DNA from: an uncultured Candidatus Binatia bacterium
Lineage (GTDB): Bacteria; Desulfobacterota; Binatia; UBA9968; CAXXLF01
DNA: 64,000 bases
NCBI GenBank assembly: GCA_965218425.1
Contig: OZ244621.1
Span: 1,632,001 to 1,696,000 of the forward strand
Direction of reading: 5' to 3'
Below are positions 46,941 to 64,000 of this stretch, in pieces. The stretch's first letter is position 1; each line of letters opens with the position of its first letter. The position numbers and the translations under genes were made by a program. The notes below the pieces were generated by a model, which was not told where the DNA came from, searched no databases, and saw only the letters and a program-made list of their open reading frames with translations.

Positions 46941-48208
46941 TGACCTGCCCCCAGGAGTGGTACCACCCTTTAAGTTAGAGCCGGAATTATCTGGAGTCCA
47001 GCCCATGGGGATGAATTCCCAGCCTGCGCTCTGGGCAGAAAGGCCTCCGGTGCCGGAGGACGATAGCCCAGGGCGCTGTGAGGCCGCCTCTGGTTATACT
47101 CTCTTCTCCATCTTTCGATCAGCACCTGAGCTTCCCTCAGGGTTTCAAACACCTCCCGGTTGAGCAGCTCATCCCTGAGTTTTCCGTTAAAACTCTCCAC
47201 GTAGCCATTCTCCCAAGGACTGCCAGGCTCGATGTAGAGTGTCCTGACACCAATGGCCTTGAGCCAGTCCCGGATAGCCTGAGCCGTAAACTCGGGGCCA
47301 TTGTCGGACCGAAGGGACTGCGGCACGCCCCGTTCCACGAATAGCTCCGCTAACCGTTCCAGCACATCCCGGTGATTCATCCGTCTGGCCACATCAATCG
47401 CCAAGCACTCCCGGGTGTATTCATCCACGATGCTCAACAGCCGAAAGGCCCGACCGTCTTCGGTTCGCTCGTGCACGAAGTCATAACTCCACACATGGTT
47501 TCGATGCGCCGGTCTCAGGCGAATGCAGGAGCCATCAGTCAACCGGAGCCTCCCTCGCTTAGGCTGACGGCTGAGGACTTTCAGCCCTTCCTGCCTCCAG
47601 AGCCTCTCCACTCGCTTGTGGTTGACCTTCCACCCCTGCCCACGCAGCATGGCCGTAATCCTCCGGTAGCCGTATCGCCCGTATTCGCTGGCCAGCTCCA
47701 TCATCCGAGCCACTAGTCTTGCTTCCTCTTCCGGGATCTCTCGGACTCTTCGTTGCGTCGATCGCGGCTGTCCCAACACTTGGCAAGCCCGGCGTTCGGA
47801 GACTCGATCAGGTCCCAATCTTTCTCTGGCCCATATCACCGCTCGTCTCCTCTTCGCCGGGCCTAGAAGTTTCCCGAGGACACTTCCTTCAGGATCTGGT
47901 TGTCCAGCGATAGATCCGCCACCAGCTTCTTCAACCGCGCATTCTCCTTGTCCAAGGCCTTGAGCCTCTTGGCCTGATCCATCTTCAGGCCTCCATATTC
48001 CTTCCTCCACCGGTAGTAGGTCTGCACGGTTACCCCCACCTGCTTGCACACCTGGCCCACCGCCTTCCCTTGGGCCAAGCTCACCTCCGCCTCACGCAGC
48101 TTGAGGATAATCTGCTCGGCCGTAAATCGCTTTCTTGCCATCCTTGCCTCCTTCCTAAAATCAAAATCCCTAACATTTCACCTGGACTCGTTTTAGGGGG
48201 CAAGGTCA
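46941..48208 (-). mobile_element. IS3-family insertion sequence
   Basis: Ends TGACCTGCCCCC / GGGGGCAAGGTCA; TCAC duplicated on both sides. Confidence 0.92.
46970..48141 (-). CDS. IS3 transposase OrfAB (-1 frameshift at GGGAAAC, 47869-47875)
   Basis: OrfA HTH ([11 protein letters not shown]); Orf[25 protein letters not shown]. Confidence 0.9.
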
Positions 48209-48964
48209 TCACGGCCCTTGCGCATTGAATATCGGGGTGCGGTCCATCATTTGATGAACCGAGGATCCGCCCGCCGAAAGGTGTTCCTCAGCAGGGCCGA
48301 CTATGGGGAATCTCTGAAAACGGTTTTACAGGCACACGATCTATGGGGGGTAGAAGATCCGGTGAGGAGCCGCAGAGGGGAGGAAAGTCGGGATGTGCCT
48401 GATGAAGAGGCTAAGCGACATGACGTTGGCGGAAGCAGCCGGGGAGTTTTGGAGTGAAGAGTCGCGGTGCGGCGGGCCGGGCGCGCCATGGGATTCGCTT
48501 AAAGCGTGGGGCGGATAGAGGAATTCGGAGGCGGCCGGAAAATCCGGAAGATGTTATTTGTCAATAAAAGATTTGACCTCTTTGTCGATCACCCAGACCA
48601 TCTATGACGAAAATGGTGACGTGGTGTATGGCCGCTCCGGAGTTGGTGAATTCATCAGGGAATGTAGTTTTGGAATGACGACTTCGGAAAATTGGCCGGC
48701 AGGAAGAATTGCAATTTCGCTTAGGGATAGACATCGGGGGCACGGACCGCCGACAGCATCGCGGCCGACATCCTGAAAGAGTGACGGGGCTTGCGCCCCG
48801 CCTCCATCTTTCACGCCTTTTGTTTAGCAAACCTTCTCAAAAATATGGTAATGCTCACCCGGGGTCATCCGGTTATGGCTTGTCCCGTTGTCCCAGGCAC
48901 GTTACGGCTATCGGCGCGCGGCCGGGCAAAGAGATGGGCTCGCACGGTTATAGGAGTTAGAGTG

Positions 48965-50086
48965 ATGGAATTACACCGAATCACCGGCAATATGACGGCC
49001 CGGTTTGGCGGGCCGGTGGTTGTCGGCGTCTTGTTCCTCGCCCTCGGCGCATGGGGCCGTTCGTCCATTGCGGCGGATTGCGGGGACTGGAACACAGAGG
49101 AGTTCTTCAAGACGGCGACGCCCATGACGGTCAGGGATTGTCTGGCATCCGGAGCCGACATCAAGGCGAGGGACAAGAACGGCGAGACCCCCCTGCACCT
49201 GGCGGCAGGGTTCAACAAAGATCCTGCCGTCGTCGCCAAATTGATCGACGGCGGAGCCGACATCAAGGCGAGGGAAAAGAACGGCGAGACCCCCCTGCAC
49301 TTTGCGGCAGGGTTCAACGAAAATCCTACCGTTTTCGCCAAGCTGATCGGCAGCGGAGCCGACATCAAGGCGAGGGACAAGTACAGCTGGACGCCCCTGC
49401 ACTTTGCGGCAAGGGACAACGACAATCCCGCCGTCGTCGCCAAATTGATCGACGGCGGAGCCGACATCAAGGCTAGAACCAAGAACGGCGAGACCCCCCT
49501 GCACCTGGCAGTAGGGTTCAACAAAGATCCTGCCGTCGTCGCCAAATTGATCGACGGCGGAGCCGACATCAAGGCTAGAACCAAGAACGGCGAGACCCCC
49601 CTGCACTTTGCAGCAGGGGACAACGACAATCCCGCCGTCGTCGCCAAATTGATCGACGGCGGAGCCGACATCAAGGCTAGAACCAAGAACGGCGAGACCC
49701 CCCTGCACTTTGCAGCAGGGGACAACGACAATCCCGCCGTCGTCGCCAAATTGATCGACGGCGGAGCCGACATCGAGGCGAGGGACAAGTACAGCTGGAC
49801 GCCCCTGCACCTGGCAGCAGGGTTCAACAAAAATCCTGCCATGATCGCCGCGCTGATCGACGGCGGAGCCGACATCGAGGCTAGAACCAAGAACGGCGAG
49901 ACCCCCCTGCACCTGGCAGTAGGGTTCAATAAAAAAAATCCTGCCATGATCGCCGCACTGATCGACGGCGGAGCCGACATCGAGGCGAGGAACAAGAACG
50001 GCAAGACGCCTTGGGATTGGGCGCAAGGAAACGCGGCCCTCAAGGGAACCGACGTTTGGTGGCGGCTGAACGAGGGGCGCTTCTGA
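48965..50086 (+). CDS. Secreted ankyrin-repeat protein
   Basis: Signal peptide; eight full 34-35 aa GADIxAR..TPLH repeats plus a partial ninth. Confidence 0.9.
   Translation: MELHRITGNMTARFGGPVVVGVLFLALGAWGRSSIAADCGDWNTEEFFKTATPMTVRDCLASGADIKARDKNGETPLHLAAGFNKDPAVVAKLIDGGADIKAREKNGETPLHFAAGFNENPTVFAKLIGSGADIKARDKYSWTPLHFAARDNDNPAVVAKLIDGGADIKARTKNGETPLHLAVGFNKDPAVVAKLIDGGADIKARTKNGETPLHFAAGDNDNPAVVAKLIDGGADIKARTKNGETPLHFAAGDNDNPAVVAKLIDGGADIEARDKYSWTPLHLAAGFNKNPAMIAALIDGGADIEARTKNGETPLHLAVGFNKKNPAMIAALIDGGADIEARNKNGKTPWDWAQGNAALKGTDVWWRLNEGRF
49151..50010 (+). repeat. 102-bp tandem repeat array (ankyrin units)
   Basis: Near-identical DNA units; units 5 and 6 encode identical peptides. Confidence 0.9.
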
Positions 50087-50638
50087 CTCAACGAAGAAAA
50101 AAAGGCGCATCGCGTCCCGAGTAGGTCGTCTCCGGGGTTGGGGCGGCAAGTATATGGGGGGCACGTCTTGTCGGATTGTTGCCCAAACGTCGGTTAAATA
50201 GCGCAATAGATCCAACCGATCTATAACCGCTCCGAGTTTGTTTGCTCAAACCCCCACTGCTTGCTGGAAGGCCGTGGCCCCGTTCGTTGCTGCAGCCAAT
50301 ACGGCTCTGGGTTTTGGCCGTGCATGATCAATCGACGGCTCGATGTTGTGCGCTATCGCCATCAAGTAATCCTGAATCCGCGCCCGCCGACGACCACGCC
50401 GGCACGGTCGATGCACGGCCCTTTCAGGGTCTTTGCATGGGCGATTTACGGGTCATTTTGTCTCGGATTTTCCCGGCCATTTTCAATTATTTCTGATCCG
50501 CTACGCTGCCGAGCACCTCGTCGATTGCATTTACCTGGGCGTATCGCTTGTAATAGTCTAACCCGACGTAAAGCTTGGGGCCTGCTCCTTTTACTTGCCC
50601 CCGGCCCAGAGACAGACAAATTCACGGAGATAAAAGAT

Positions 50639-51718
50639 ATGGATAGATTTGCCTTGGCCGTACTTCTATGGTTCTCGATTTGTTCCGTCTCTCACGCAAA
50701 ACCAATCTCGATCATAGCTTTCAACGCCGAAAACCTTTTCGATACCATCGATGACGCCGGCAATCCCCACGATGACACCTACCTCCCGCTATCCGTCAAG
50801 CAGCAAAGACCGGAGCACGATCAACGTTGCGAGAAGTTCACTCGCAGCAAGTTCTATGAAAAACAATGCAAGGAATTGAATTGGGATGAAGCGACATACG
50901 GCATGAAGTTGCAGCGCTATGCCGACGTCGTCAAAGCCATGCCGCTGATGCCCGATGTCCTGGTGATTCCGGAAACTGAAAACAAGCAGGTATTGGAGGA
51001 CCTGACCGCCCGCCATTTAAGCTCTGAAAATTTCCATATCGTGCAGCTTGACACCAGTGATCAGCCGGACAACCGAGGTATCGACGTCGGCATTCTTACC
51101 AAACTCCCGATTGTGGGAAAACCGGAAGCGTTTGTCGTGGACATCAAGCGCGATAGCCAAACCTGCGGGAAGACAAGAGACATTGTGCAGGTTGGACTGG
51201 AGCTACCCAACGGCGAGACTCTCTTCGTGTTCGGTGTCCATTTCCCGTCAGGCGGAAACCCGTTCAGTTGCCGGATACGCGCTTTTAAGAAACTCAACGA
51301 GCTTGCCAAGAAACTGCCGAAGGAGAGTTTGGCGGTGGCGGCAGGTGATTTTAATATCAACTGCAAGGAAGGACCGTCCGATGCATTTGCGCGTTTGCTG
51401 GAACGGGGAAATTGGCATGCATCTCCGTTGGTGAAGAGCGGTTGCGGAGCGCCGGGGTCAAGAAAGCATTTCGATCACACATGGTCGTTCCTTGACATGA
51501 TATTGGTGTCGGCACATCTAAGCCCATCCCGGCCCTCAACCAAGAACTGGTTCGCGGATCTTGGCAGCTTCAGCACTTTGGTAGTGAGTCAGGAGCAGGT
51601 GATGACTGATGGAAAGGATCGCGGCTACATGGAACCGCGCCGCTTTGATCCGAATAGTCGCCGCGGTGTGTCTGACCATTTTCCGGTCGGCATGCGGTTG
51701 TTGCTTCGACGAGAATAG
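50639..51718 (+). CDS. Secreted endonuclease/exonuclease/phosphatase (EEP) family protein
   Basis: FNAENLFD, GDFN, LDMILVS, SDHFPV; signal peptide. Confidence 0.88.
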   Translation: MDRFALAVLLWFSICSVSHAKPISIIAFNAENLFDTIDDAGNPHDDTYLPLSVKQQRPEHDQRCEKFTRSKFYEKQCKELNWDEATYGMKLQRYADVVKAMPLMPDVLVIPETENKQVLEDLTARHLSSENFHIVQLDTSDQPDNRGIDVGILTKLPIVGKPEAFVVDIKRDSQTCGKTRDIVQVGLELPNGETLFVFGVHFPSGGNPFSCRIRAFKKLNELAKKLPKESLAVAAGDFNINCKEGPSDAFARLLERGNWHASPLVKSGCGAPGSRKHFDHTWSFLDMILVSAHLSPSRPSTKNWFADLGSFSTLVVSQEQVMTDGKDRGYMEPRRFDPNSRRGVSDHFPVGMRLLLRRE

Positions 51719-52245: not shown

Positions 52246-52408
52246 CAAAAGACGACATGGCCGAGCCGCTCCACGTCATGCGGCGGCGTCTTGACGCATA
52301 TTGCAGCAGCCGCCACCTCGTGGTGTCGGGACAGTTCAACCTGGGAGGCGACGGTGGCGGGAGAGCTTTAGTGCTCCCTCAATAACTTTTGAGAAGGCGA
52401 GATGAATC

Positions 52409-52433
52409 ATGTCAAATGTCAAGGTCTGACCCC
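52409..52433 (+). repeat. RAYT-type terminal motif, family C (ATGTCAAATGTCAAGGTCTGACCCC)
   Basis: Same ...TGACCCC terminal architecture as families A/B; single copy here. Confidence 0.5.
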
Positions 52434-53208
52434 GAACATAGTGGCCGTTGGTTCCAATGGCAGCGTATACGCGGCCAAGATGACAAAGGAACTTAAGGAT
52501 TGGCAGTCTCAACAAAAAGGCCTAAAGCGACTGAGGAGAATGCTGGATAACGTAAGCGAGGCCGTGAGACTGGCAATAACAGTGAGATTGAACGAAAAAA
52601 AATTGACGGCCGATGACGCGCAACGGATTCACTGGGACATAGTGTGGCGATTGTCTCACCGGTTCGGGTATGTCGATTACGCGACGACCCTTGACAACCT
52701 GTATGCGGATATCGTAGAAGATTCCTACAAATATTTTCACACCCTTGGGAGCATATACTATGACACCGAACCAGGAGGAATTAATCTCAATAATCGACCC
52801 GCCAACACCGTTTTCTTCCTTGAAGGAGTGGAGGGAGTTCCAGCATTCATTGGACTCAAAGACTCCCCGGGACCAGAGGTTCAAGGAGTGGGCGGGGGAG
52901 GTAATCAAACTCAAGATCCAGGCTCAGAAGGAGGGCCTGGCAGCGCCCAAGAAGTTTCCCCCACAACCGGCATAGCAGAGGACCCACGCACTTACGGCCT
53001 GCCCGACTTCCGCATGAGGCAGGACGACATACCCCAATCTTCCACCCCGATAAAGAATAACTACCACCCCCCAAACACCGCCGAAGGGCGGCAGATAAAG
53101 AGACGCCAGGACATCATCGACAATCTCTCCCAGGCCTTCCAGATCCCGATCCGCACGGGCAAGGGCAGTTTCGCGCAAAGGAAAGCCCGGGCGTTCTTCA
53201 AAGTCAAA
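52434..53208 (+). pseudogene. Internal fragment of a large, possibly phage-like protein
   Basis: Open frame with no start or stop of its own; bounded by RAYT-end sequences on both sides. Confidence 0.45.
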
Positions 53209-53368
53209 GATGAAGAGGCTAAGCGACATGACTTTGGTGGAAGCAGCCGGGGAGTCTGGAGTGAGGAGTCGCGGTGCGGCGGGCCGGGCGCGCCATGGGA
53301 TTCACTTAAAGCGCGAGGCGGCTGGAGAATCCGGAAGATGTTATCTGTCAACAAAAGATTTGATCCCT
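53209..53368 (+). repeat. RAYT-element end, family B copy 3
   Basis: High similarity to 48401-48580. Confidence 0.8.
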
Positions 53369-54087
53369 TTGTTAAGGTTTTTGTGCGCCTGTCTCCATCT
53401 GTCGGCCACGCCGATTACAAATGTTCGAGCAAGTTGGTAACGGCCCCTAACCTCATCAAAGGTAATTGAGCGCCCCTTTACTCTCAGCCCTTGTCCTTGC
53501 TTTCGCGAGATCGGGGATAGACCACCTGACGATAAAAACCTGTCTTCGCTCAGGAAATACTGTGAATGGCTCACAGCGTTTCGGAGATAGGGGTCCCAAA
53601 GCCGCTCTAGCACACCGCCAATCTTGATGCACAAGCTTTTCGACAAACGGCAAATTTCCTCGATCTTCTCACCTGGGTACTCGCAGATCTGAGTGCAGCC
53701 TGCATTTGAAACTCTTGTAAATGTCCATGACTCAGGACTTCCAGAGGCGGCTCGTAACAGATTCCAAACAATTGCGAGTGGAAGATCTGATTCCATGATT
53801 CGACAATAGCCGGCTAGCATTAGACGAATCTTGTCCTTTTCGGGCAATGATGTACGTTTTACTAGTAAATCAACAAGTGCAATGAAATCCTCGAGTTCAA
53901 AATATTCGTAGCTCGGAATATGAGTCACAATTTTCTGGCCAGGTAGAAGTTCTCCTGGGAGTTCGGCGTCGGTAGGTACAACCGCATTCCAAAGTGCTTT
54001 TCGATCGATGCTCGCACAGATTTTAAAAACTTCCGCAAGTGATTCGATAATCTCTTGCTCAGTCAACGAGCCATTCCCCAATTTCAT
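53341..54087 (-). CDS. Hypothetical protein with HEPN-like RxxxxH motif
   Basis: LRNAVSH; AT-richer than flanks; stop codon lies inside the family B repeat. Confidence 0.55.
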   Translation of the reverse strand: MKLGNGSLTEQEIIESLAEVFKICASIDRKALWNAVVPTDAELPGELLPGQKIVTHIPSYEYFELEDFIALVDLLVKRTSLPEKDKIRLMLAGYCRIMESDLPLAIVWNLLRAASGSPESWTFTRVSNAGCTQICEYPGEKIEEICRLSKSLCIKIGGVLERLWDPYLRNAVSHSQYFLSEDRFLSSGGLSPISRKQGQGLRVKGRSITFDEVRGRYQLARTFVIGVADRWRQAHKNLNKGIKSFVDR

Positions 54088-54249: not shown

Positions 54250-57200
54250 TCACGTTCCCTCTCCGAGAACCTCGACGACCTCAGCGATCACCTGCAGCGG
54301 CCCCTCGTCCGTGCCGGTTAGGATGATCGGCTCGAAGTCCGCGTTGACAGGGTTGAGTATGATTCTCGTATGGTGCCATGAGTCTCCGTCGCCGGCCTTC
54401 TCGCTTTTGTAACGCTTGACGGTGTAGCGCTCGCCGCTTTCCGGATCGGCGGCGTCGCGCATCTGCACGAGCACCGTCTTGCCCTGGCGCGTGCCCTCGA
54501 CGGGCGCCGCGAAGAGGCAGTACGCGCCGTCGGGGATGGCCGGCTCCATGGACTTGCCGACCACCTGGGCGACGAACATGCCACGACGGAGGCGGCGCTT
54601 GGTCTCGACTGCCGCCCATTCATAGTCATCGTCATCGATGTACTGGAGGTCGCTGAATGCGCCCGCGGCGGCCTTGAGAGGGACGAGCGGCACGCAGGTC
54701 ACGTAGCGCTCCTCCGGCTGGGGCTCGACGATACGCAGGCGTGCCGGAAGCGCGCTGGGTCCCGCGTGCTCCTCTCCTCCGCGAGTGTCGTCGCTTCTCA
54801 GCCGCCGATACGCCTGCGACGCCATCCATGTCGTCACGAGCTTCTGGAAGGGCGCGTCGTTCATGAACCGGACGAAGATCTCCTCGTTCTGATCCATGCG
54901 CTCGACGAACAGATTCTCCAACAGGCTCTTGAACACCAGCTCGAACTTGTCGCCCGGATTGACCGCGGCCGCCTGTCGCAGACCGTCGTCGGCCATGGCC
55001 GCTTCGACAATCTGATCGAAGAAGAGCTGATCGGCCTGGTTGAAGTCCGTGCCGAAGCGTTCGTTGACGATGTCGATGAGCTGGGAGAGCGGCACCGACT
55101 GCTCGTTCGCAGCGCCGCTACCGACCTCGGTGGGCCCATCCAGGGCGCCCGCAACGCCGTCCCGGAGCGAGATAGAGCCTTCGCTGATCTTCTGCAGGCG
55201 GTAGTACTCGATCCGCACCTCGTCATCGAACTGGTACGCCGGGCCACTCTTGCGACGTGGCAGCTTCGCCACGAGATGGCGGAGGAACACGTACAGTTGC
55301 TCGAGATCCGAGTCCTGGTACGGAATCACCTGGCTCAGGAACCCATACAGATTCAAAAACGCCTGCACCTTGCCGCGCCAGTCTTCCGCCCCCTCCTCGT
55401 TGTCGTCCCGGCGGACCGTGAATCGCGACACCGCCGGATCGAGAGCGGCGTTCATGGTCCGGTGATCCAGCGCACTCTGCCGACGCTTCGGCTTGAAGTA
55501 GACGTCTCTGAACCGCTCAACCTCCTCATCGAGGTAGATTCCCGAGGCATCCAGCTCGCCCTTGATCGCGTACATGCGGGCGGGGTCGACTTCCTCGCCC
55601 ATCTCGGAACCTTCGTAGTAGGTCTTGAAGGCCTCGCGAATCTCCTCCCTGTCGTTCACGAAGTCGAGAACGAATGTGTCTTCCTTGAGCGGGTGAATGC
55701 GGTTCAGCCGGGAGAGGGTCTGAACGGCCTGAATGCCCGCGAGCCGCTTGTCCACGAACATCGTGTGCAGCAGCGGTTGATCGAACCCGGTCTGGTACTT
55801 CTCCGCCACGAGCAGGACCTGATACTCCTGCGTCGCGAACTTCTCAGGCAGCTCTTTCTCGGAGATGCCCTGGTTCATGCCCGGTTCGGTATAGGTGACG
55901 CCTGCGAGCTTGTCGTCCACCACCGTGCCGGAAAACGCCACCAGCGACTTGATGGCGTAGCCCTTCTTCCGGATATAGCGATCGAAGCTCTGCTTGTAGC
56001 GGACCGCTTCGAGGCGCGACCCCGTCACCACCATCGCCTTGGCCCGGCCGCCGATCTTGTGCCGCGTGACGGCCTGGAAGTGCTCGACCATCACCTCGGT
56101 CTTCTGCGCGATATTGTGCGGATGCAGCCTCATGAAACGCGCCAGCGCCTGCGCGGCCTTCTTGCGCTTTACGTTGGGATCGTCCTCGCACGCCTTGAGC
56201 AGCCTGAAGTACGTCGCGTACGTGGTGTATTGATTCAGCACGTCGAGGATGAACTCTTCTTCGATCGCTTGCCGCATGGTGTAGCGGTGCGCCGGCTGCC
56301 CATCGCGGCCGAACACGGCGAGCGTCTTGTGCTTGGGCGTGGCGGTGAAGGCGAAGAAGCTCAGGTTCGCCTGCTTGCCGCGCTTGGCCATGCTGCGGAA
56401 GAGCTCTTCCATGTCTTCCCGGCCTTCCTCGGACGCGCGCTTCTTGGCTTCGTCCCGAAGCCCCTCTCCGCCCAGCACTTCCTTGAGATCGGTCGCCGTC
56501 TCGCCGCTCTGAGAGCTGTGCGCCTCGTCGACGACGACGGCGCAACGCCGGGTGGCGAGCGTGCCCGTGCCTGTCGTCCCGCGTTCCTCGGCCATCTTGA
56601 GCAAGTGGCGCGAGACGAAAGGGAATTTCTGCAGTGTTGTGATGATCACCGGCACCGCATTCTCGAGCGCTTCGGCGAGTTGTCGCGAGCTCTCGTCGAT
56701 CCGCTGCACGACGCCCCGCTTGTGCTCGAACTGGTAGATCGTGTCCTGGAGCTGCTGGTCGAGCACGACGCGATCCGTGACCACGATAACGCTGTCGAAA
56801 ACGCGCTGGTTGGCGGCATCGTGCAGGGATGCGAGCCGATGCGTCAGCCAACCTATGGTGTTGCTCTTGCCGCTGCCTGCCGAATGCTCGACGAGGTAGT
56901 TGTGCCCCACGCCCTCGCTGCGGGCGGCGTCCACCAGCATGCGCACCGCCTGGAGTTGGTGGTAGCGGGGGAAGATCATGGCCTCCGTCTTGACCTTGCG
57001 GCCCCGGTCGTCGCGCTTCTCGTCCATCTGCAAGTGGATGAAGCGGGCGAGGAGGTCGAGCAGGCTGTCACGCCGCAGCACCTCTTCCCATAGGTATGCC
57101 GTGCGGTAGGTCCGGCCCGCCGGATCAGGCGGGTTCCCGGCCGCTCCGTCGCAGCCTTTGTCGAACGGAAGAAAATGTGTCGCCGCGCCGGCGAGCCGCG

Positions 57201-57804
57201 TGGTCATGAGCACGGACTCGGTATCCACGGCAAAGTGCACCAACGTGCGCCGCTTGAACTCGAAGATCGGCTCGCGCGGGTCGCGGTCCTGCTTGTACTG
57301 TCGGCGTGCATCCTCAACGGTCTGTCCGGTGAGCGGGTTCTTCAGTTCCAGCGTAGCCACGGGAATGCCGTTCAGGCTCAGCGTGACATCCAGCGACTTC
57401 TCGGAGCGTGGCGAGAAGCGGAGCTGGCGGGTAAGCCCCAGACGGTTGGCGGCGTAGCGGGATTCAAGCTCCGGATTCAACTCGTGCGCCGCCTTGAAGT
57501 ACGCCGCATGGAGCGTTCGCCCGTAACACTTGAACCCGTGTCGCAGCGTCGCAAGCGCGCCGTTGCCGTCCATCCACTTGCACAGATCGCCGAGGATCTG
57601 CTCTCCGGTCTTGTCGCCGTGCAGCGACTCTAGCTTGGCCCATTCCTTCGGTTGGGTCTCGCGGATGAAGGCGAGGACCGTCTCGGGAAAGATCGCGCGC
57701 TCGCGGTCGAAGCCCTCGCGCGCGACCGTCACATACCCGTTCTCAAGCAGGTGCGCTTCGATGACGGTCTCGAAGGCGGTTTCGGAGTGACGACCTTGGC
57801 TCAT
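54250..57804 (-). CDS. hsdR: Type I restriction subunit R with C-terminal S24 (LexA-like) peptidase domain
   Basis: LELKN nuclease motif, HSAGSGKS, DEAHSS, FTATP, QTGFD, SRLNR; tail AAAG..GKSM..TVKR. Confidence 0.93.
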   Translation of the reverse strand: MSQGRHSETAFETVIEAHLLENGYVTVAREGFDRERAIFPETVLAFIRETQPKEWAKLESLHGDKTGEQILGDLCKWMDGNGALATLRHGFKCYGRTLHAAYFKAAHELNPELESRYAANRLGLTRQLRFSPRSEKSLDVTLSLNGIPVATLELKNPLTGQTVEDARRQYKQDRDPREPIFEFKRRTLVHFAVDTESVLMTTRLAGAATHFLPFDKGCDGAAGNPPDPAGRTYRTAYLWEEVLRRDSLLDLLARFIHLQMDEKRDDRGRKVKTEAMIFPRYHQLQAVRMLVDAARSEGVGHNYLVEHSAGSGKSNTIGWLTHRLASLHDAANQRVFDSVIVVTDRVVLDQQLQDTIYQFEHKRGVVQRIDESSRQLAEALENAVPVIITTLQKFPFVSRHLLKMAEERGTTGTGTLATRRCAVVVDEAHSSQSGETATDLKEVLGGEGLRDEAKKRASEEGREDMEELFRSMAKRGKQANLSFFAFTATPKHKTLAVFGRDGQPAHRYTMRQAIEEEFILDVLNQYTTYATYFRLLKACEDDPNVKRKKAAQALARFMRLHPHNIAQKTEVMVEHFQAVTRHKIGGRAKAMVVTGSRLEAVRYKQSFDRYIRKKGYAIKSLVAFSGTVVDDKLAGVTYTEPGMNQGISEKELPEKFATQEYQVLLVAEKYQTGFDQPLLHTMFVDKRLAGIQAVQTLSRLNRIHPLKEDTFVLDFVNDREEIREAFKTYYEGSEMGEEVDPARMYAIKGELDASGIYLDEEVERFRDVYFKPKRRQSALDHRTMNAALDPAVSRFTVRRDDNEEGAEDWRGKVQAFLNLYGFLSQVIPYQDSDLEQLYVFLRHLVAKLPRRKSGPAYQFDDEVRIEYYRLQKISEGSISLRDGVAGALDGPTEVGSGAANEQSVPLSQLIDIVNERFGTDFNQADQLFFDQIVEAAMADDGLRQAAAVNPGDKFELVFKSLLENLFVERMDQNEEIFVRFMNDAPFQKLVTTWMASQAYRRLRSDDTRGGEEHAGPSALPARLRIVEPQPEERYVTCVPLVPLKAAAGAFSDLQYIDDDDYEWAAVETKRRLRRGMFVAQVVGKSMEPAIPDGAYCLFAAPVEGTRQGKTVLVQMRDAADPESGERYTVKRYKSEKAGDGDSWHHTRIILNPVNADFEPIILTGTDEGPLQVIAEVVEVLGEGT

Positions 57805-58451
57805 GCCCCCATCCTTGCGAGCTTTTGGCCCAACAGCCAGACCGCGACCTGAACATATGGAGCGAGTTCCCCGACTCCTGCGTCACGTCTGGTTCGCTCG
57901 CGTTCGAGCCGTTCACGAGGCACACGGCCGTGATTCCGTTTCTTCTGGTTCTCCCACCATTCGAGTACCGCGTCGTAGACGCCCTTCCGATTGTTCTTCA
58001 GTTTGGCGAGGTTCAGATTCAACACGTTGTTGAGCTGGCCATCGAAACCTGCCTCATCCGCGTGGATCGAGCCATCCGGCTCGTACCGGATGCGGGTCTC
58101 GATGCGATGCGCCTGGTTGGCGGGATTCCACTCAAGGTCCCTGTCCCCCTTCCTCGTGTCGCAGTGCTGGAGGTGAGCCGGTTGTCCATGCCCGCCGAGA
58201 CAGGCGCCGAGGAGATTCCGGTAGTTGAGTTGTTCGTCTTGGTGGTCTTTTTGGTCCCTCCAGTGCTCGATCTTCATGGACGCTCGCTCGGGGCGGATGC
58301 GACCCATGCAGTAGCAGCACAGCCCGTGCTGCTCGATAACAAGGGCGTGTCGAAGATCGTTCTTCGGCACGTAGTTGTCATAATCGCAGTGCGGTGTCTG
58401 GCGATGCGACCTGAGGCTTGCTGGTTCGCGACCCTTGGTGATCGCCCTCAT
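57801..58451 (-). CDS. HNH endonuclease (TIGR02646/PtuB-like)
   Basis: EQHGLCCYC, KIEHW, YRNLLGAC..HCDTRKG, LNLN. Confidence 0.85.
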   Translation of the reverse strand: MRAITKGREPASLRSHRQTPHCDYDNYVPKNDLRHALVIEQHGLCCYCMGRIRPERASMKIEHWRDQKDHQDEQLNYRNLLGACLGGHGQPAHLQHCDTRKGDRDLEWNPANQAHRIETRIRYEPDGSIHADEAGFDGQLNNVLNLNLAKLKNNRKGVYDAVLEWWENQKKRNHGRVPRERLERERTRRDAGVGELAPYVQVAVWLLGQKLARMGA

Positions 58452-59764
58452 TCCTCGCCCTCCATAAAATCGAGGAGGGTTCGGATTCGGGTGACTTCGG
58501 GATCATTCTCGCCAAGCCGGTCGACGAGTTGTGCCAGCAATTCACGTGCGCTCTCGTACCGCTGATTACTAACTTCGTGGGACACCTGCGAGAGTAGCAC
58601 GTCGACTTTCTGAGTGCGGGGGTCTGCACCCATGATTTCTTCCAGGACCCGGCTCGAGTCCACCCCGAAGGAATGGGGAGGCGAATAAACCTCGCCTTTC
58701 GAGATGATCTGGATGTGATCGTGCTCGACCTCGCCAATGACTTGCGGCGAATGGGTCGTGGCGATGAACTGGCAGCGCGGGAACGTCGTCGTGAGTTTGT
58801 GAACGATCTGCCGCTGCCAAGACGGATGGAGGTGCAAGTCCAGTTCATCGATTAGGACTACAGCCTCGCCCTCCTGCAGCGGATCGTCAAGATTCGGATT
58901 TGCCTGGGACAACCGCTTTGCAAGGTCGAGGACCATGCCAAGTACGCCTCGCTCTCCATCAGACAGCTGGCTCACATCGAGCGTGGTGCCATGGCTGTCA
59001 ATCAAGAGGCTAGAGGCATCTTCATTGTGTCGGATGTTCTGACAACTCGGGAGGAATCGGGTTGCTGAGACCTGGAGGACTTCTAGATGCCGAGCGGCAA
59101 CTGGTAACTCGGCAGCCAAGGTGGATTGCGTGCGCATCCACTCGGCGAACTGCCTAACCTGCCATGGTCTTGAAACTAGCGCTTCGGCATATGCAGCTGC
59201 TCTGCCACCCGAGGTCTTGCTTTTTGGAGCCTTCGCCCCAGCGACGACGGAGCGATTCGTCGCGAAAAAGACGCAGTTTGGGGCCATTTTGAGCGCCCGT
59301 GCCGTTCGGGAGAGTTCGCCCTTCCCAGGGAACAGCGTATCGGAATCCGAGACTCCGTGCGAATCTTCAAGGTCCCTTAGCAGATTTCGCGCACGATCCC
59401 GTAGACGTTCTGACTCCAAAATTTCCCTGCGAAGACGTTCGATGTTCTCTTCATCATCGGCTGCGAATTTCGTTTTCCACTGCCGTCGAGTCAAACGGAA
59501 TTCCTTGTCGCCTAAATTGGCGTCCAGCGAAACGTCCAAAAAAGGGAATCCGGCCCGTATGTCGTCGACGACAAAAGACATCGCCCTTGACCGGCTATTA
59601 GAAATCGAAGGAAGGACCCGTGACATGCAAATGCGAATCGCGTCCAAAATTGTGCTCTTGCCGACACCGTTGACTCCCACAATTAAGTTCAGTCCAGTTT
59701 TAAACGAGAACTCCGCAAACTCTATGGCGCGCAAGTTCGCGAGATGGAGACGCGTTACTCTCAT
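58448..59764 (-). CDS. ABC/AAA_21-type ATPase (PtuA-like)
   Basis: GVNGVGKS, LSDGE signature, LIDELDLHLHPSWQ, TTHSP. Confidence 0.88.
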   Translation of the reverse strand: MRVTRLHLANLRAIEFAEFSFKTGLNLIVGVNGVGKSTILDAIRICMSRVLPSISNSRSRAMSFVVDDIRAGFPFLDVSLDANLGDKEFRLTRRQWKTKFAADDEENIERLRREILESERLRDRARNLLRDLEDSHGVSDSDTLFPGKGELSRTARALKMAPNCVFFATNRSVVAGAKAPKSKTSGGRAAAYAEALVSRPWQVRQFAEWMRTQSTLAAELPVAARHLEVLQVSATRFLPSCQNIRHNEDASSLLIDSHGTTLDVSQLSDGERGVLGMVLDLAKRLSQANPNLDDPLQEGEAVVLIDELDLHLHPSWQRQIVHKLTTTFPRCQFIATTHSPQVIGEVEHDHIQIISKGEVYSPPHSFGVDSSRVLEEIMGADPRTQKVDVLLSQVSHEVSNQRYESARELLAQLVDRLGENDPEVTRIRTLLDFMEGEE

Positions 59765-61053
59765 GCCGCTTCCCCAATGTCGATCTGGCCAGTTACAGCA
59801 GCAGCGATAAGGGCTGTTCGGCGCTCTTTGAGAAGGGTTATAGTTCGATCCGTAGCCTCGACTAGGCGATCGAGGCGAGACGTCCTTTCACGTAGACTTG
59901 CCACGATAGCCTTCTGTTCGGAGGGTGGGGGAAGTGGGACCTCCATGTCGTTTAGCGTCTCAACAGTTAGTTGATTGATCGTCGACGTGGAAAAGGCACC
60001 CGCTTGATAGTCAAAGAGCGGAGAGTTGAAGATGTAGAAGAGATACTCATTGTGAGGACTCCGAAAGACAGTCATGAATGCACCAAACGTCAAGCCAGTA
60101 GCAGCTTGAACTATCAGAGCGTTCTTGCCAATCAATGTACGGCTACCGCTTCGCGAGCAGATAAGTATGTCGCCCAGTCTGGTTCTGAGATTCTCGGGAA
60201 TGTCCATCAGAACAAACAGCTTGTCGTCGAGAATGATCTTCTGGTCTTGGACATTTGAGGCTCGCAACACAAGAACACCGCTACCGTCGGTGACCGTGTC
60301 CGCTGGATCGAACGTTAGCCCAATGATTGCCTTGCCAACGTGCTTGAGCCGCTTGAGATCCCAATGCGCCGGAATCTCGCCGAGCCAGGGGATGCTGGAG
60401 TCTCGTAGCGGGGCGTGGGGGTCAAGGCCACGGGTGACGGCGCGGGTGATGAGCGCCCGGCGCTTCTCGGCCAACAGCCCGAGCACCCGCTCCTTTGCCG
60501 CCACTAACGCATCCAGCCGCGCCGTTTCGCGGTCGAGGTAGTCGGCGATGGCACGTTGCTGATCAAGCGCCGGCACTGCGATCTCGGTTTCTCCGACGAG
60601 ATCCGATTCAAGGCTCTCAACCGTACTGCCTACTTTGCTCCAAACGTTTAGTAGTTGCTGCTGATGCCCTTCTAATAGTCGGGCAAGAAAACGCGCCTCA
60701 AGCTGCGGGAACGGGATCAATGCGCGCATGTCTTGATTCAAAGCGATCGACACTCGATTAATCGCAACCGGAATCGAATGGCGCAGAATGCCCGAGCGCA
60801 TTACGAGCAGGACGGCACCAGGGGCAACGAGTTTGGTCGCACTGCTTTCGAGCCCATCTGTCGTGATGTGATCTTCCGTGTCATCGACGGTTGCGCTCCT
60901 CATATCCTTCGGCGACACCCAAGGAATTTCGCCATTCCAGTACTCTGGATTCCCCTTGTCTGGAGTTCCCCCACCTGCGAAACGACAGAGGTACTTGATG
61001 CGCTTGCGCGGCCAAGTAGTCGGAAACGCTGAGCCCCAGGAGACGGTACTCAC
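59761..61053 (-). CDS. hsdS: Type I restriction specificity subunit S
   Basis: Two TRDs with PALDQQRAIADYLD / PPPSEQKAI and LIAAAVTG conserved regions. Confidence 0.92.
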   Translation of the reverse strand: MSTVSWGSAFPTTWPRKRIKYLCRFAGGGTPDKGNPEYWNGEIPWVSPKDMRSATVDDTEDHITTDGLESSATKLVAPGAVLLVMRSGILRHSIPVAINRVSIALNQDMRALIPFPQLEARFLARLLEGHQQQLLNVWSKVGSTVESLESDLVGETEIAVPALDQQRAIADYLDRETARLDALVAAKERVLGLLAEKRRALITRAVTRGLDPHAPLRDSSIPWLGEIPAHWDLKRLKHVGKAIIGLTFDPADTVTDGSGVLVLRASNVQDQKIILDDKLFVLMDIPENLRTRLGDILICSRSGSRTLIGKNALIVQAATGLTFGAFMTVFRSPHNEYLFYIFNSPLFDYQAGAFSTSTINQLTVETLNDMEVPLPPPSEQKAIVASLRERTSRLDRLVEATDRTITLLKERRTALIAAAVTGQIDIGEAA

Positions 61054-63038
61054 TCCGTCACCTCCCGCAGCAAGCGCATGATCTTTTCCTCCTCTTGCTT
61101 CAGATCCGCGTCGATCTCTTCCAGCGGGCGCGGAGGCGTGTACTTGTAGAAGTGCCGGTTGAAGTTGATCTCGTAGCCGACCTTGTCCTTGCTGCGGTCC
61201 ATCCAGGCGTCGGACACGTGGGGGCGCACCTCGCGTTCGAAGTAGGCGTCGATGTCGTCAGTGAGCGGCACGTTCTCGAAATCCCGCAGGTCGGCATCCG
61301 GCTCATACCCGTTGTCGCCCCCGCCGCTGGCGACGGGCTCGGCTTCGGGGTCCTTTTGGGTGAAGACGCTGCGGAAGAGGTTCCGCTCGGTCGCCTTCCA
61401 CCGGGACTTGCGCGAGTGCAGCACGTCTTCGATACAGCTCCACTCCGCATTCCAGTCGCGCTTCGGCTCCCGCCCCAGCTCCTTGTCGATGGCCTGCACG
61501 TCGTCGAGCAGGTGCGGGCACGCATCGAGGAAACGGGCCTTGTCTTCCAGGGTCATCTGGTAGCGCAGGCGCAGGGGCCGCTCGACGGTCACGCGGGTGT
61601 AGCCGAAGTCGGCGTTGTCGAAGGTCTTGGAGGTCTCGCCGTCGATCCGCCGGCCGTAGATCTTCACGATCTCGTCGATCTGTCTGCGGGTGAGGTGGCG
61701 GCGCTTGTCGCCGAGGCTCCGCTTGTTGTCCTCGCCGCCGCCCGCGGTCCACACGTCGCGCGCGTCCAGGAGCTGGATCTTGCCCTTGCGTCGCTTTTCC
61801 TTGCGGTTGGTGATGATCCAGACGTAAGTGCCGATGCCGGTGTTGTAGAACATCTGCTCGGGCAAGGCGATGATGGCCTCGAGCCAGTCGTTCTTGATGA
61901 TCCACTTGCGGATGTCGCTCTCGCCCGAGCCCGCGCCGCCGGTAAAGAGAGGCGAGCCGCTGAAGACGATCGCTAATCGAGAACCGTGCTTGCGCTCTTT
62001 AGGACGCACTGGCTCGAACTTGCTAATCATGTGCTGCAGGAAGAGCAGCGAGCCGTCGTTCACGCGCGGCAGCCCGGCACCAAAGCGGCCGTCGGAACCG
62101 CGCTTGTCGTGCTCCCGCTTGATCTCCTTCTGCTGTTTCTTCCAGTCCACGCCGAAGGGCGGATTGGTGAGGAAGTAGTCGAATGACTCGTCCGCAAACC
62201 GGTCATCGGTGAAACTGTCACCGAAGCGTACGTTGTCGCCGCTACCATTGTGATCCACCTGTTTCATCAGCATATCGGACGCGGCGGTGGCGAATGCGCG
62301 CTTGTTGTAGTCCTGCCCATAGACGTAGAGCTTCGCCGCGCCATGATGCTCACGCAGGTAGTTCTGGGCCTCGGCCAACATCCCGCCGGTGCCGCAGGCG
62401 GGGTCGAGCAGCTTGCGGACGGTGCCGGGTGTGGCGAGCAGTTCGTCATCCTGGATGAACAGAATGCTTACCATCAGCCGGATGACCTCGCGCGGCGTGA
62501 AATGGTCGCCTGCGGTCTCGTTGGCCAGTTCGTTGAAGCGGCGGATGAGGTTCTCGAAGATTAACCCCATCTGCTCGTTCGGCACCGTGTTCGGGTGCAG
62601 GTCGACATCGCAGAACTTCGAGACGACGAGATAGAGGATGTTCGCCTCGCGCATTCGCTCGACCTCGTTCTCGAACTCGAAGAAGTCGAAGATGTCGCGC
62701 ACGTTCTTCGAGAAGCCCTTGATGTAGCTGACGAGGTGCTTCTCGATGTTGTCGGGGTCGCCCTTGAGCTTTTGGAAATCGAGGGGGGAGTGGTTGTGAA
62801 AACGCTGGCCAGCGGCTTTGTTCAGCCGCTGGTCCAAGGCTTCGCCCTCGACCTTGCCACCCTTGAGCCTTGCGTGTTCGGCCAGGACCTTGGCTTTCGA
62901 CGGGGCCAGCACGCAGTCGAACCGGCGCAGCACCGTCATGGGCAGCATGACACGCTCATACTGCGGGGGCCGGTACGGCCCCCTGAGTAGATCCGCAATT
63001 TGCCAGATCAGGATAGCGAAATAATTGTGATCCGCCAT
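61050..63038 (-). CDS. hsdM: Type I restriction N6-adenine methyltransferase subunit M
   Basis: IWQIADLLRG, GDHFTPREV, DPACGTGG, NPPF, FYNTGI. Confidence 0.95.
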   Translation of the reverse strand: MADHNYFAILIWQIADLLRGPYRPPQYERVMLPMTVLRRFDCVLAPSKAKVLAEHARLKGGKVEGEALDQRLNKAAGQRFHNHSPLDFQKLKGDPDNIEKHLVSYIKGFSKNVRDIFDFFEFENEVERMREANILYLVVSKFCDVDLHPNTVPNEQMGLIFENLIRRFNELANETAGDHFTPREVIRLMVSILFIQDDELLATPGTVRKLLDPACGTGGMLAEAQNYLREHHGAAKLYVYGQDYNKRAFATAASDMLMKQVDHNGSGDNVRFGDSFTDDRFADESFDYFLTNPPFGVDWKKQQKEIKREHDKRGSDGRFGAGLPRVNDGSLLFLQHMISKFEPVRPKERKHGSRLAIVFSGSPLFTGGAGSGESDIRKWIIKNDWLEAIIALPEQMFYNTGIGTYVWIITNRKEKRRKGKIQLLDARDVWTAGGGEDNKRSLGDKRRHLTRRQIDEIVKIYGRRIDGETSKTFDNADFGYTRVTVERPLRLRYQMTLEDKARFLDACPHLLDDVQAIDKELGREPKRDWNAEWSCIEDVLHSRKSRWKATERNLFRSVFTQKDPEAEPVASGGGDNGYEPDADLRDFENVPLTDDIDAYFEREVRPHVSDAWMDRSKDKVGYEINFNRHFYKYTPPRPLEEIDADLKQEEEKIMRLLREVTE

Positions 63039-63391
63039 TGCCTATTCAATCATTATCAAATTCAGGAATCAATTTTCCCGGATCTTACCCGAAATCGCCT
63101 ATTTATGCCAAGAAGAACAACTCTTACTTTCCGAGGAATCAGGTAAGCGTAAGGCAAAGAGAAGCAATAATTGTAATCGGAATTGAGAAATTTTACCGGG
63201 GAAAGTGGTCTGGCACGTTTTTGTCCTAGTGAATCTAATTCGTGTCGCTATCACTCGGCAACACATTCCTTCAAAACGTCTCAGTTCAGACTCTTCTAAA
63301 CAAGGATATCACTTCAGCGCCGGCTTTCAGCTTGTCCAGATAATCCGCCTAAACCAGCGTCATCTTCCGCCATAGTTACTCCGGCACTGTG

Positions 63392-63494: not shown

Positions 63495-64000
63495 CTATCT
63501 CGACGAAAACGAATACACCTCAAAGCAATCGTAGAAGATCGCCGCAAACGCATATGCTTCGTCGACCTCATCGTATCGAAGGCGATACTTAAACACATCC
63601 GGATTCTCACCCCGGATTGGTTCCGGACCGAGAAAACTTTGAGACGCCTCAACAGTGTCTAGTGTCATCTGATGCGGAACAACCTGGTCGGCCGCAATCC
63701 CACTGAAGAAGTTCGGGGAGATTACAGCTATCGGAAAACTCCATTTGCTATGATAGACATCAAAAAAAACGCTCTTGCCAAATGATCAATACAAGCGTCA
63801 AAGCGTTCCCGATCGATCTGTAGCGCGCGCCTTTTTCCTTCGGCTACTGTTCCCTTGTCCCCAAAGAATGATCGGTGCGCATGCGGCGTTCTCGCCGCAG
63901 AGGGAAGCAGTTTTCGAGTGAACTGGTGCTTTCCCGTGTCACTGTTCGAGGCTGCCGTCATCAGAATTACTGAGCGGAAATACTCGTCGTCCTTTTGCTT
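63495..64000 (-). pseudogene. 3' part of a hypothetical (possibly HNH-like) gene, frameshifted at a T8 run; 5' end outside window
   Basis: KQKDDEYFRSV...HLARAFF, then the shifted frame stays open as DVYHSKW...GENPDVFKY...FYDCFEVYSFSSR*. Confidence 0.55.

Follow-up and report, generated by a model that had tools for sequence, protein, structure and literature searches.

A Septu lineage apparently confined to the hsdS-hsdR slot of one type I restriction-modification family, with a predicted contact between PtuA and HsdM

Introduction

A 64,000-nucleotide stretch of DNA from an uncultured Candidatus Binatia bacterium (assembly GCA_965218425.1, contig OZ244621.1, positions 1,632,001 to 1,696,000; hereafter the window, meaning the whole stretch) carries a type I restriction-modification (R-M) operon in which a Septu defence pair, i.e. 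the ABC-type ATPase PtuA and the HNH nuclease PtuB, lies between the specificity gene hsdS and the restriction gene hsdR. The PtuA of this locus belongs to a lineage that, judged from gene trees and neighborhoods, is confined to the hsdS-hsdR slot, and complex prediction places one of its helix pairs against a helix of the methyltransferase subunit HsdM that occurs only in the clade of HsdM proteins hosting PtuAB. It is this apparently slot-specific PtuA lineage, together with the predicted PtuA-HsdM interface and its mapping to a clade-specific HsdM helix, that is new here. We consider it probable that PtuAB is tethered to the R-M system. That the whole Septu lineage acts as a built-in alarm of one type I R-M family, silent on the HsdM helix and firing when a phage disables or remodels the complex, is a reading that we put forward tentatively, as possible rather than probable.

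One defence system may come to lie within another as a selfish hitch-hiker, for the sake of shared regulation, or because the two are truly coupled in function, and PrrC in the EcoprrI system has so far been the textbook case of such coupling. The locus described here, with its approximately 90 relatives across many phyla, offers a testable second case with a named interface (HsdM residues 497-515 against PtuA residues 182-223), and natural controls are at hand in members of the same R-M family that have an empty slot or other cassettes. The PtuAB effector is well studied, and its stand-alone and retron-held forms have already been solved. If the contact is true, sensors as different as a retron and an R-M enzyme would be able to restrain the same PtuAB module; if it is false, the locus is an ordinary embedded Septu. 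The layout as such is not rare and belongs to a described class of embedded defence systems, and, as it is also widely recurrent, the bare finding is not new. Payne et al. (2024, bioRxiv) show in their preprint that Hma, BREX, DISARM and type I R-M systems can have other defence systems embedded among their genes, Septu occurring in Hma and PrrC being nearly restricted to type I R-M, and discuss both selfish co-transfer and back-up defence as explanations. The comparison of the slot with that of PrrC in EcoprrI, made in an original prediction for this locus, holds and is also drawn in that preprint.

Results

A type I R-M operon with an embedded gene pair

Five genes, all on the reverse strand, make up the operon, i.e. 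hsdM (61050-63038), encoding the type I methyltransferase subunit of 662 amino acids with a C-terminal extension of approximately 190 amino acids; hsdS (59761-61053), encoding the specificity subunit of 430 amino acids with two target-recognition domains; ptuA (58448-59764), encoding the Septu ABC-type ATPase of 438 amino acids; ptuB (57801-58451), encoding the Septu HNH nuclease of 216 amino acids; and hsdR (54250-57804), encoding the restriction/translocase subunit of 1184 amino acids. Consecutive genes share a 4-nucleotide (nt) start/stop overlap at each of the four junctions (GTGA, ATGA, ATGA and ATGA, from hsdM/hsdS to ptuB/hsdR), and the order and overlaps given in the original prediction are borne out by the open reading frame (ORF) coordinates and the junction letters. 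Among relatives, 4-nt overlaps were found between hsdM and hsdS in 41 of 54 loci, between hsdS and ptuA in 34 of 54, between ptuA and ptuB in 29 of 54, and between ptuB and hsdR in 22 of 50. Since these overlaps recur, the layout is inherited and not a chance feature, and the five genes are, as read from this layout, transcribed and translated together.

Gene identities were drawn from Pfam, PADLOC and NCBIfam profile searches of the five proteins. HsdM matched PF02384 (1.2e-54), PF12161 (HsdM_N) and the PADLOC model MTase_I PDLC03029 (2.6e-260), and its NPPF motif at 292 and S-adenosylmethionine motif DPACGTG at 212 are intact; it represents a divergent family, since its TIGR00497 score of 82 lies under the cut-off of 243. 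HsdS matched PF01420 in two stretches and PADLOC Specificity_I over its full length (5.8e-99). HsdR matched TIGR00348 at 2.3e-56 (score 191.6 versus a cut-off of 284.6), contains the domains HSDR_N, SWI2_SNF2 and T1R_D3 (PF04313, PF18766 and PF22679), and retains GSGKS at 310, DEAH at 426 and the PD-(D/E)xK nuclease residues D139...E153-x-K155. All hallmarks of a type I R-M system are present, namely an N6-adenine methyltransferase in HsdM, two target-recognition domains in HsdS, and a nuclease together with a superfamily 2 DEAH motor in HsdR.

A type I Septu pair without a retron

The embedded pair is a type I Septu, i.e. a PtuA ABC-type ATPase and a PtuB HNH nuclease with no retron. PtuA matched the PADLOC model PDLC00271 over residues 1-436, i.e. 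its full length (9e-120), as well as PF13304, PF13175 and PF02463, and it retains Walker A (GVNGVGKS, 30-37), Walker B (VVLIDE, 302-307), LSDGE at 267, and HSP. PtuB matched PDLC00322 over its full length (2.9e-71), with the motifs CCYC at 45, EH at 62 and HC at 96; its TIGR02646 match (5.9e-13, 49.1 bits) falls slightly below the curated cut-off of 52.15, and no solved structure matched it at E ≤ 0.001. The best Protein Data Bank (PDB) matches of PtuA were the ATPases of retrons Ec83 and Ec78, and the PtuA of 8ee4 matched at 3.4e-36; we take 8ee4 and 8eea to be stand-alone Septu type I structures. Residue 1 of the window's PtuA aligns to residue 61 of the Ec83 ATPase, i.e. the N-terminal extension of retron-type PtuA is absent.

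No reverse transcriptase (RT) domain of family PF00078 (RVT_1) was detected in the whole single-contig genome of 4.46 Mb (97% complete), with a search that was positive in 3 of 14 control genomes, and Rfam gave no match in the window and 18 kb beyond it. On these two results we rejected a retron lying beyond the window. Both elements of the original prediction for the pair, a Septu-type PtuA/PtuB and no retron, are thereby confirmed, the former by the full-length PADLOC matches and the latter by widening the search for an RT from the flank to the entire genome.

A PtuA lineage confined to the hsdS-hsdR slot

A survey seeded with PtuA covered 85 genome loci (5 + 80), in 38 of which ptuA lies amid hsdM, hsdS and hsdR of the window's family, while the other 47 have no hsd gene of that family. 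PtuB was missed by phmmer in 13 of the 38 embedded loci, where PADLOC identified the second gene as a PtuB of PDLC00346 or PDLC00315. Of the 47 remaining loci, 26 are flanked well enough to be called stand-alone; their 99 neighboring ORFs are mostly housekeeping genes and include no RT, with three loci lying beside BREX-type genes, one beside another HsdM family and one beside CRISPR type III. The BREX-side pairs, which fall outside the window's lineage, are L045 (PglZ and BrxC/D downstream), L059 (PglZ downstream) and L067 (an Eco57I/MmeI-type methylase upstream), and Septu pairs therefore adjoin methylation-based systems of various kinds.

In a tree of 104 PtuA sequences, from which the truncated L058 and L061 were dropped, the window's PtuA falls into a group of 58, of which 56 are embedded and two are partly visible (the inner clade of 56 has a support of 86 and its subclades 98-99). 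None of the 26 stand-alone and 19 short-context sequences in the tree falls within this group, although it spans 35-67% identity. In a scan of metagenomes, 38 of 80 loci had a PtuA score of at least 220; hsd genes were present in 33 of these 38 and no family-level hsd match was found in five, four of which do not extend far enough for a verdict. The remaining one, L190, may be an exception, with no hsdR in the 2.97 kb downstream, where a Schlafen-like gene and then a convergent RecD-like helicase are located, and with its upstream side missing. Where the original prediction hinged on close homologues lying inside hsd operons, it is upheld, both by the tree and by the metagenome loci, and on this evidence the PtuA lineage is, with L190 as a possible exception, confined to the hsdS-hsdR slot. 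The slot has been entered more than once, since the embedded PtuA of L095 is of another lineage and those of L114 and L123 branch deep. In the HsdM tree, all 57 PtuA-bearing rows lie in one clade of 79, and none in the basal pair L117/L119 or in a sister clade of 23 rows (clade II).

PtuAB keeps its association with hsdM and hsdS even in loci that lack hsdR. Three genomes (L004, L021 and L104) and one metagenome (L183) have hsdM-hsdS-ptuA-ptuB, a methylase and a Septu pair, but no restriction subunit in the 5-9 kb that follow (the hsdS of L104 is, in addition, of half size), and no locus with ptuAB and hsdR but without hsdM and hsdS was seen where upstream sequence is present. PtuB belongs to subfamily PDLC00315 in L042, L114 and L123 (PDLC00322 in the window), and as L042 pairs this PtuB with a PtuA of the main lineage, PtuB has been swapped independently of PtuA.

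A predicted contact between PtuA and HsdM

Complex prediction was run on HsdM residues 150-662 and PtuA with alignments that we built ourselves, after removal of the N-terminal 149 residues of HsdM. The pair scored 0.66 (0.66, 0.64 and 0.68 in individual runs), versus 0.00 for the best of three controls; 116 of 157 solved complexes attain the pass mark, as do 2 of 215 mismatched pairs, counts that hold only roughly with our own alignments. Runs agreed in at least 53% of contacts, and the predicted local distance difference test (pLDDT) score of the partner was at least 74. The predicted interface joins HsdM residues 497, 500-506, 508-509, 511, 515 and 554 to PtuA residues 182-187, 190, 205-223 and 287, and is centered on an HsdM helix with the motif LEDKARFLDACPHLLDDVQ (residues 497-515; window 61494-61550, reverse strand) and on a helix pair of PtuA (residues 182-223; window 59096-59221, reverse strand). 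Since no solved HsdM structure can be aligned beyond residue 474, the pass is not a memory of a known complex. The modelling envisaged in the original prediction thus yielded a contact that passed its controls, in the form of a model of a truncated HsdM and not of measured binding.

Sequence comparisons agree with the prediction to varying degrees. The HsdM motif MTLEDKARFLDACPHLLDDVQAIDKE (residues 495-520) is present throughout the 79-row clade that hosts PtuAB, whereas L117/L119 and clade II have unrelated sequence at this position and no PtuA; the C-terminal extension of HsdM contains a replaceable module. In clade II (L129-L166), a different, longer, lysine-rich segment replaces the KARFLDACPHLLDD helix at HsdM residues ~495-560, and it is kept across empty slots and several cassettes. 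On the side of PtuA, 20 close homologues all share W209, R211, L216, E219 and A223, residues that lie on the contact face. At the contact between HsdM 509 and PtuA 208, His is paired with Asp/Glu 17 times and never with His/Lys, and Asp/Glu is paired with His/Lys 6 times and never with Asp/Glu. Five of 16 variable contact pairs rank in the top 10% of the entropy-matched background for mutual information, although the pairs share columns and are not independent. Relative conservation of the interface residues was higher in PtuA-bearing loci (+0.033) than in loci where PtuAB is replaced (-0.044; one-sided p 0.055, uncorrected for phylogeny), and the HsdM motif is eroded in L092, L093, L087, L139/L140 and L095. 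Overall, covariation by segments, windows and mutual information gives weak to moderate support to the predicted interface.

The contact might instead be a false positive, arising from an exposed amphipathic helix in the truncated HsdM, with homologous recombination in the strongly conserved hsdM/hsdS and hsdR flanks as the sole cause of the confinement. We regard this as quite improbable. In its favor, HsdM is 61-86% identical across phyla, so that the flanks offer extended homology; the cassette has been exchanged between loci; the model was made without the first 149 residues of HsdM; and covariation is weak. This explanation overlaps with that of an autonomous Septu (see below). However, the controls, two of them unrelated partners and one an unrelated receptor, all scored 0.00, which argues that the HsdM helix is not generically sticky, and Gabija and DarTG, which use the same slot, are common elsewhere, so that the slot does not trap every entrant.

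The slot as a hotspot and the case for an independent Septu

Several observations weigh against a functional link between PtuAB and the R-M enzyme, one being that the slot is not specific to PtuAB. A survey seeded with HsdM covered 80 loci, of which 27 carry PtuA in the slot, 23 carry other cassettes, 12 are empty (defined as a gap under 350 nt) and 18 are truncated. The other cassettes comprise Gabija (L101), IetAS (L102), DarTG (L142 and L165, partial in L119), the candidate systems PDC-M31 (L097), PDC-M23 (L140) and PDC-M45 (L141), and an OLD-like ATPase (L103). A recurrent one (L087, L088, L092, L093, L095, L117, L139, L145, L158, L161 and L201) is a gene of approximately 380 amino acids of the ImmA/IrrE Peptidase_M78 type with weak PADLOC matches to RmrA/CapP, usually followed by a gene of approximately 165-176 amino acids (L088, the only one tested, has DUF4411). 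PtuAB and this ImmA-type cassette form a tandem in L095 and L201. Several occupants of the slot, among them Gabija, DarTG and IetAS, are known to work on their own.

Even the nearest HsdM relatives of the window hold other cassettes (L103, with 89% identity, and L087), and we rejected the idea that the R-M family requires PtuAB because slots are empty or otherwise filled in the closest of them (L103, L087, L090 and L088). Tight junctions were likewise rejected as evidence of coupling, since GajA in L101 overlaps hsdS by the same 4 nt as ptuA does. As other cassettes share both the slot and this overlap, position and translational coupling are not specific evidence for control by the R-M enzyme. 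The original prediction is correct in placing the pair inside the hsd operon, but in so varied a slot the position and tight junctions that it leaned on do not by themselves argue for such control. DarTG2 has also been reported between hsdS and hsdR in enteropathogenic Escherichia coli (EPEC), at a site called a likely recombination hotspot (PMC12255303).

Phylogenetic congruence and residue conservation add to this weight. Of 45 splits, HsdM and HsdR trees share 28, PtuA and HsdM 8, and PtuA and HsdR 7 (patristic correlations of 0.82, 0.67 and 0.45, respectively); since the PtuA tree is poorly congruent with that of HsdM, the cassette has moved between loci of the R-M family, and recombination between highly conserved hsd flanks could be an alternative cause of its confinement. 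The charge swap at HsdM 509/PtuA 208 stems largely from one subclade. The HsdM motif is perfectly kept in L103, L099 and L090, which are without PtuAB, and the contact segment of PtuA is common to all PtuAs, i.e. it is not an insertion, and no extra domain is present. No HsdM column and one HsdR column are markedly more conserved in PtuA-bearing loci. In the covariation rankings, the HsdM window at 495 was 43rd of 637 and the PtuA window at 182 was 140th of 397, and the correlation between the HsdM motif and the interface segment is surpassed by 30% of PtuA segments picked at random. Lastly, the contact is predicted and not measured, in a model from which the N-terminal domain of HsdM was cut off.

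A serious rival reading is that of an autonomous embedded Septu, in which PtuAB would act just like its stand-alone form, an ATP-bound PtuA oligomer restraining PtuB until infection releases it, and the pair would ride a recombination hotspot with no physical or regulatory link to the Hsd proteins, the gain being co-expression and co-transfer with the R-M system as a second, independent layer of defence. We consider it possible, though less likely than not. With 23 of 80 HsdM-seeded loci holding other cassettes and 12 of 80 empty, the slot behaves as a general hotspot; PtuAB pairs of other lineages have housekeeping genes as their neighbors or lie within BREX (99 neighboring ORFs of 26 loci); PtuA lacks any additional domain, its tree has just 8 of 45 splits in common with that of HsdM, and conservation contrast and covariation are weak. 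Embedding has been described before, with selfish co-transfer as one explanation (Payne et al. 2024), and a stand-alone Septu defends by itself, without any R-M system (PMC13096335). An autonomous pair would, however, leave unexplained why a lineage of such depth lacks a stand-alone member in the tree (L190 being the only possible metagenome exception), why PtuA and HsdM passed the prediction cleanly against three controls, and why the helix of HsdM that is contacted does not occur outside the clade hosting PtuAB.

A proposed mechanism

In the mechanism that we propose, the R-M enzyme would methylate host DNA and cut unmodified incoming DNA, and the PtuA helix pair (182-223) would dock on the clade-specific helix that HsdM carries in its C-terminal extension (497-515), so that the ATPase-nuclease module would sit on the methylase core and be kept latent. 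Infection would then disturb the complex, either through an anti-restriction protein acting on the methylase core or through a fall in ATP, whereby PtuAB would be freed or switched on, and the HNH nuclease would cut DNA or tRNA, halting phage growth at the cost of the cell. Such an alarm would be a second, independently evolved guard of the PrrC kind, and a protein-based counterpart of the hold that retrons exert on PtuAB. The guard idea of the original prediction draws indirect support from the confined lineage, the predicted PtuA-HsdM contact and the restriction of the helix to the PtuAB-hosting clade, but not from slot position or junctions, and the full guard model, in which PtuAB is held by the R-M enzyme as PrrC is, may be right, with the balance leaning somewhat against it.

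The latency, trigger and target of PtuAB are ones that we infer by analogy with systems in the literature. In one stand-alone Septu, ATP-bound PtuA restrains the PtuB DNase until ATP falls, and PtuAB degrades DNA (Li et al. 2024, as relayed in PMC12673091), while another cleaves tRNA-Tyr and behaves as abortive infection (PMC13096335). In retron Ec78, the complex of RT and multicopy single-stranded DNA (msDNA) neutralizes PtuAB via elements added to PtuA, and the pair is toxic when displaced (PMC12819146). The masking of PrrC by EcoprrI, with Stp as trigger, is experimental, as cited in the preprint of Payne et al. (2024).

PtuA may alternatively be tethered to HsdM without serving as a guard, so as to bring the HNH nuclease to DNA identified as foreign by the R-M enzyme or to stalled translocating complexes; PtuAB would then supplement restriction by cutting or nicking and would stay inactive upon its failure, a reading that we consider unlikely. 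The same predicted contact and motif distribution would fit it, and the loci without hsdR (L004, L021, L104 and L183) could use PtuB as their only nuclease. We know of no precedent for it. Degradation of DNA by stand-alone Septu PtuAB would be in keeping with recruitment (PMC12673091, relaying Li et al. 2024), but relatives of PtuAB are abortive-infection effectors acting on tRNA (PMC13096335 and PMC12819146). In addition, HsdR has an intact PD-(D/E)xK nuclease of its own, and the R-M family works without PtuAB, as the empty slots indicate.

Comparison with known systems

Stand-alone PtuA/PtuB, i.e. Septu type I, was reportedly described by Doron and colleagues in 2018. The window's pair shares with it an ABC-type ATPase and an HNH nuclease, overlapping genes and the lack of an RT, but differs in its location between hsdS and hsdR, in belonging to a lineage that was not found alone, and in its predicted binding to HsdM. 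The signature motif of the window's PtuA is LSDGER; the position of Gln361 is Leu in stand-alone Septu and Gln in retron Ec78, according to PMC12819146.

Type I-A retrons (Ec78/Eco7 and Ec83, or "Septu type II") have the same PtuAB effector, which is held by a partner until infection, as is proposed here. They differ from the window's locus, which has no RT or non-coding RNA and a PtuA without the N-terminal RT-binding extension, and they hold PtuAB by RT-msDNA, whereas the proposed partner here is a protein helix of HsdM. Retron PtuAs have also gained new elements, whereas the contact segment in the window's PtuA is one that all PtuAs possess. The "helical flap" of retron PtuA (261-274) would, by its offset from the signature motif, correspond to approximately residues 173-186 here, beside the predicted interface, although the regions are not alignable.

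PrrC in EcoprrI (hsdM-hsdS-prrC-hsdR) occupies the same slot, has an ABC-type ATPase effector and forms a lineage nearly exclusive to type I R-M operons (Payne et al. 2024). Its masking by the R-M enzyme is experimental, whereas the same logic at the window's locus is predicted or inferred; moreover, PrrC combines the ATPase and an anticodon-nuclease domain in a single polypeptide, in contrast to two proteins with an HNH nuclease here, and no PrrC model was among the best 25 of 155 PADLOC matches of PtuA. PARIS (AriA/AriB) is likewise an ABC-type ATPase that holds a nuclease and a guard of R-M, triggered by Ocr (as cited by Payne et al. 2024), but its effector is a TOPRIM and not an HNH nuclease, it senses Ocr directly, and it is not attached to the R-M enzyme; AriA models match the window's PtuA weakly (PDLC02980, 2.5e-26). 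Septu in Hma and DarTG2 in the type I R-M system of EPEC resemble the present case in that one defence system lies between the genes of another. The accessible texts on these embedded systems (Payne et al. 2024; PMC12255303) treat embedding as genetic and state neither a PtuA-HsdM contact nor a slot-specific PtuA lineage, and neither was found in our search of the literature on Septu and type I R-M, although figures and supplements of the preprint lay outside that search and may list Septu in type I R-M.

Other features of the operon and its surroundings

An S24 peptidase domain (LexA/UmuD-type) forms the C-terminus of HsdR (residues 1044-1177; window 54274-54675, reverse strand; PF00717, 26.2 bits versus a cut-off of 23.3). 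It is intact, with Ser in GKSMEP and Lys in TVKR, and a KAAAGAF stretch upstream resembles a LexA cleavage site. HsdR ends in the same tail at another 20 distinct loci, irrespective of whether the slot is occupied by PtuAB, an ImmA-type cassette, Gabija, an OLD-like ATPase or PDC-M31, and we accordingly rejected a particular tie of this domain to PtuAB. No related paper on such a fusion came up in a search of the literature.

A sigma-70-like promoter match is located approximately 45 nt upstream of hsdM (63082-63111, reverse strand; TTGGCA, an 18-nt spacer and TAAGAT, with 9/12 matches), and is a candidate only for the operon promoter, because such matches are no more numerous here than in shuffled sequence.

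The operon is an acquired island, as judged by its guanine-plus-cytosine content (0.60-0.64 versus 0.47-0.54 in the flanks), an IS3-type transposase at a distance of 6 kb, and the finding of no close PtuA in 30 relatives, of which one is congeneric, three belong to the family and 26 to the order, the best being 33% identical. Between the operon and housekeeping genes lie this IS3-family transposase (rve, HTH_21; window 46970-48049, reverse strand), an ankyrin-repeat protein (48791-50086, forward strand) that matches the PADLOC candidate PDC-M72A (2.2e-54), and an endonuclease/exonuclease/phosphatase-family protein (50261-51718, forward strand), all of which may share the island with the operon. 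The flanking ORFs (53341-54087, 52402-53469 and from 63728 onward) were rejected as parts of the module because no homologues of them adjoin the other loci. Upstream of hsdM follow a small uncharacterized ORF, an aminotransferase fragment and iron-uptake genes. The small ORF, of 142 amino acids with a CxxC...EH-like start, lies approximately 690 nt upstream of hsdM (window 63728-64000, reverse strand, continuing to L001:2156), and beyond it is a C-terminal fragment (147 amino acids) of a class I/II aminotransferase (L001:2531-2974, reverse strand), which suggests that the island was inserted in or beside a disrupted gene.

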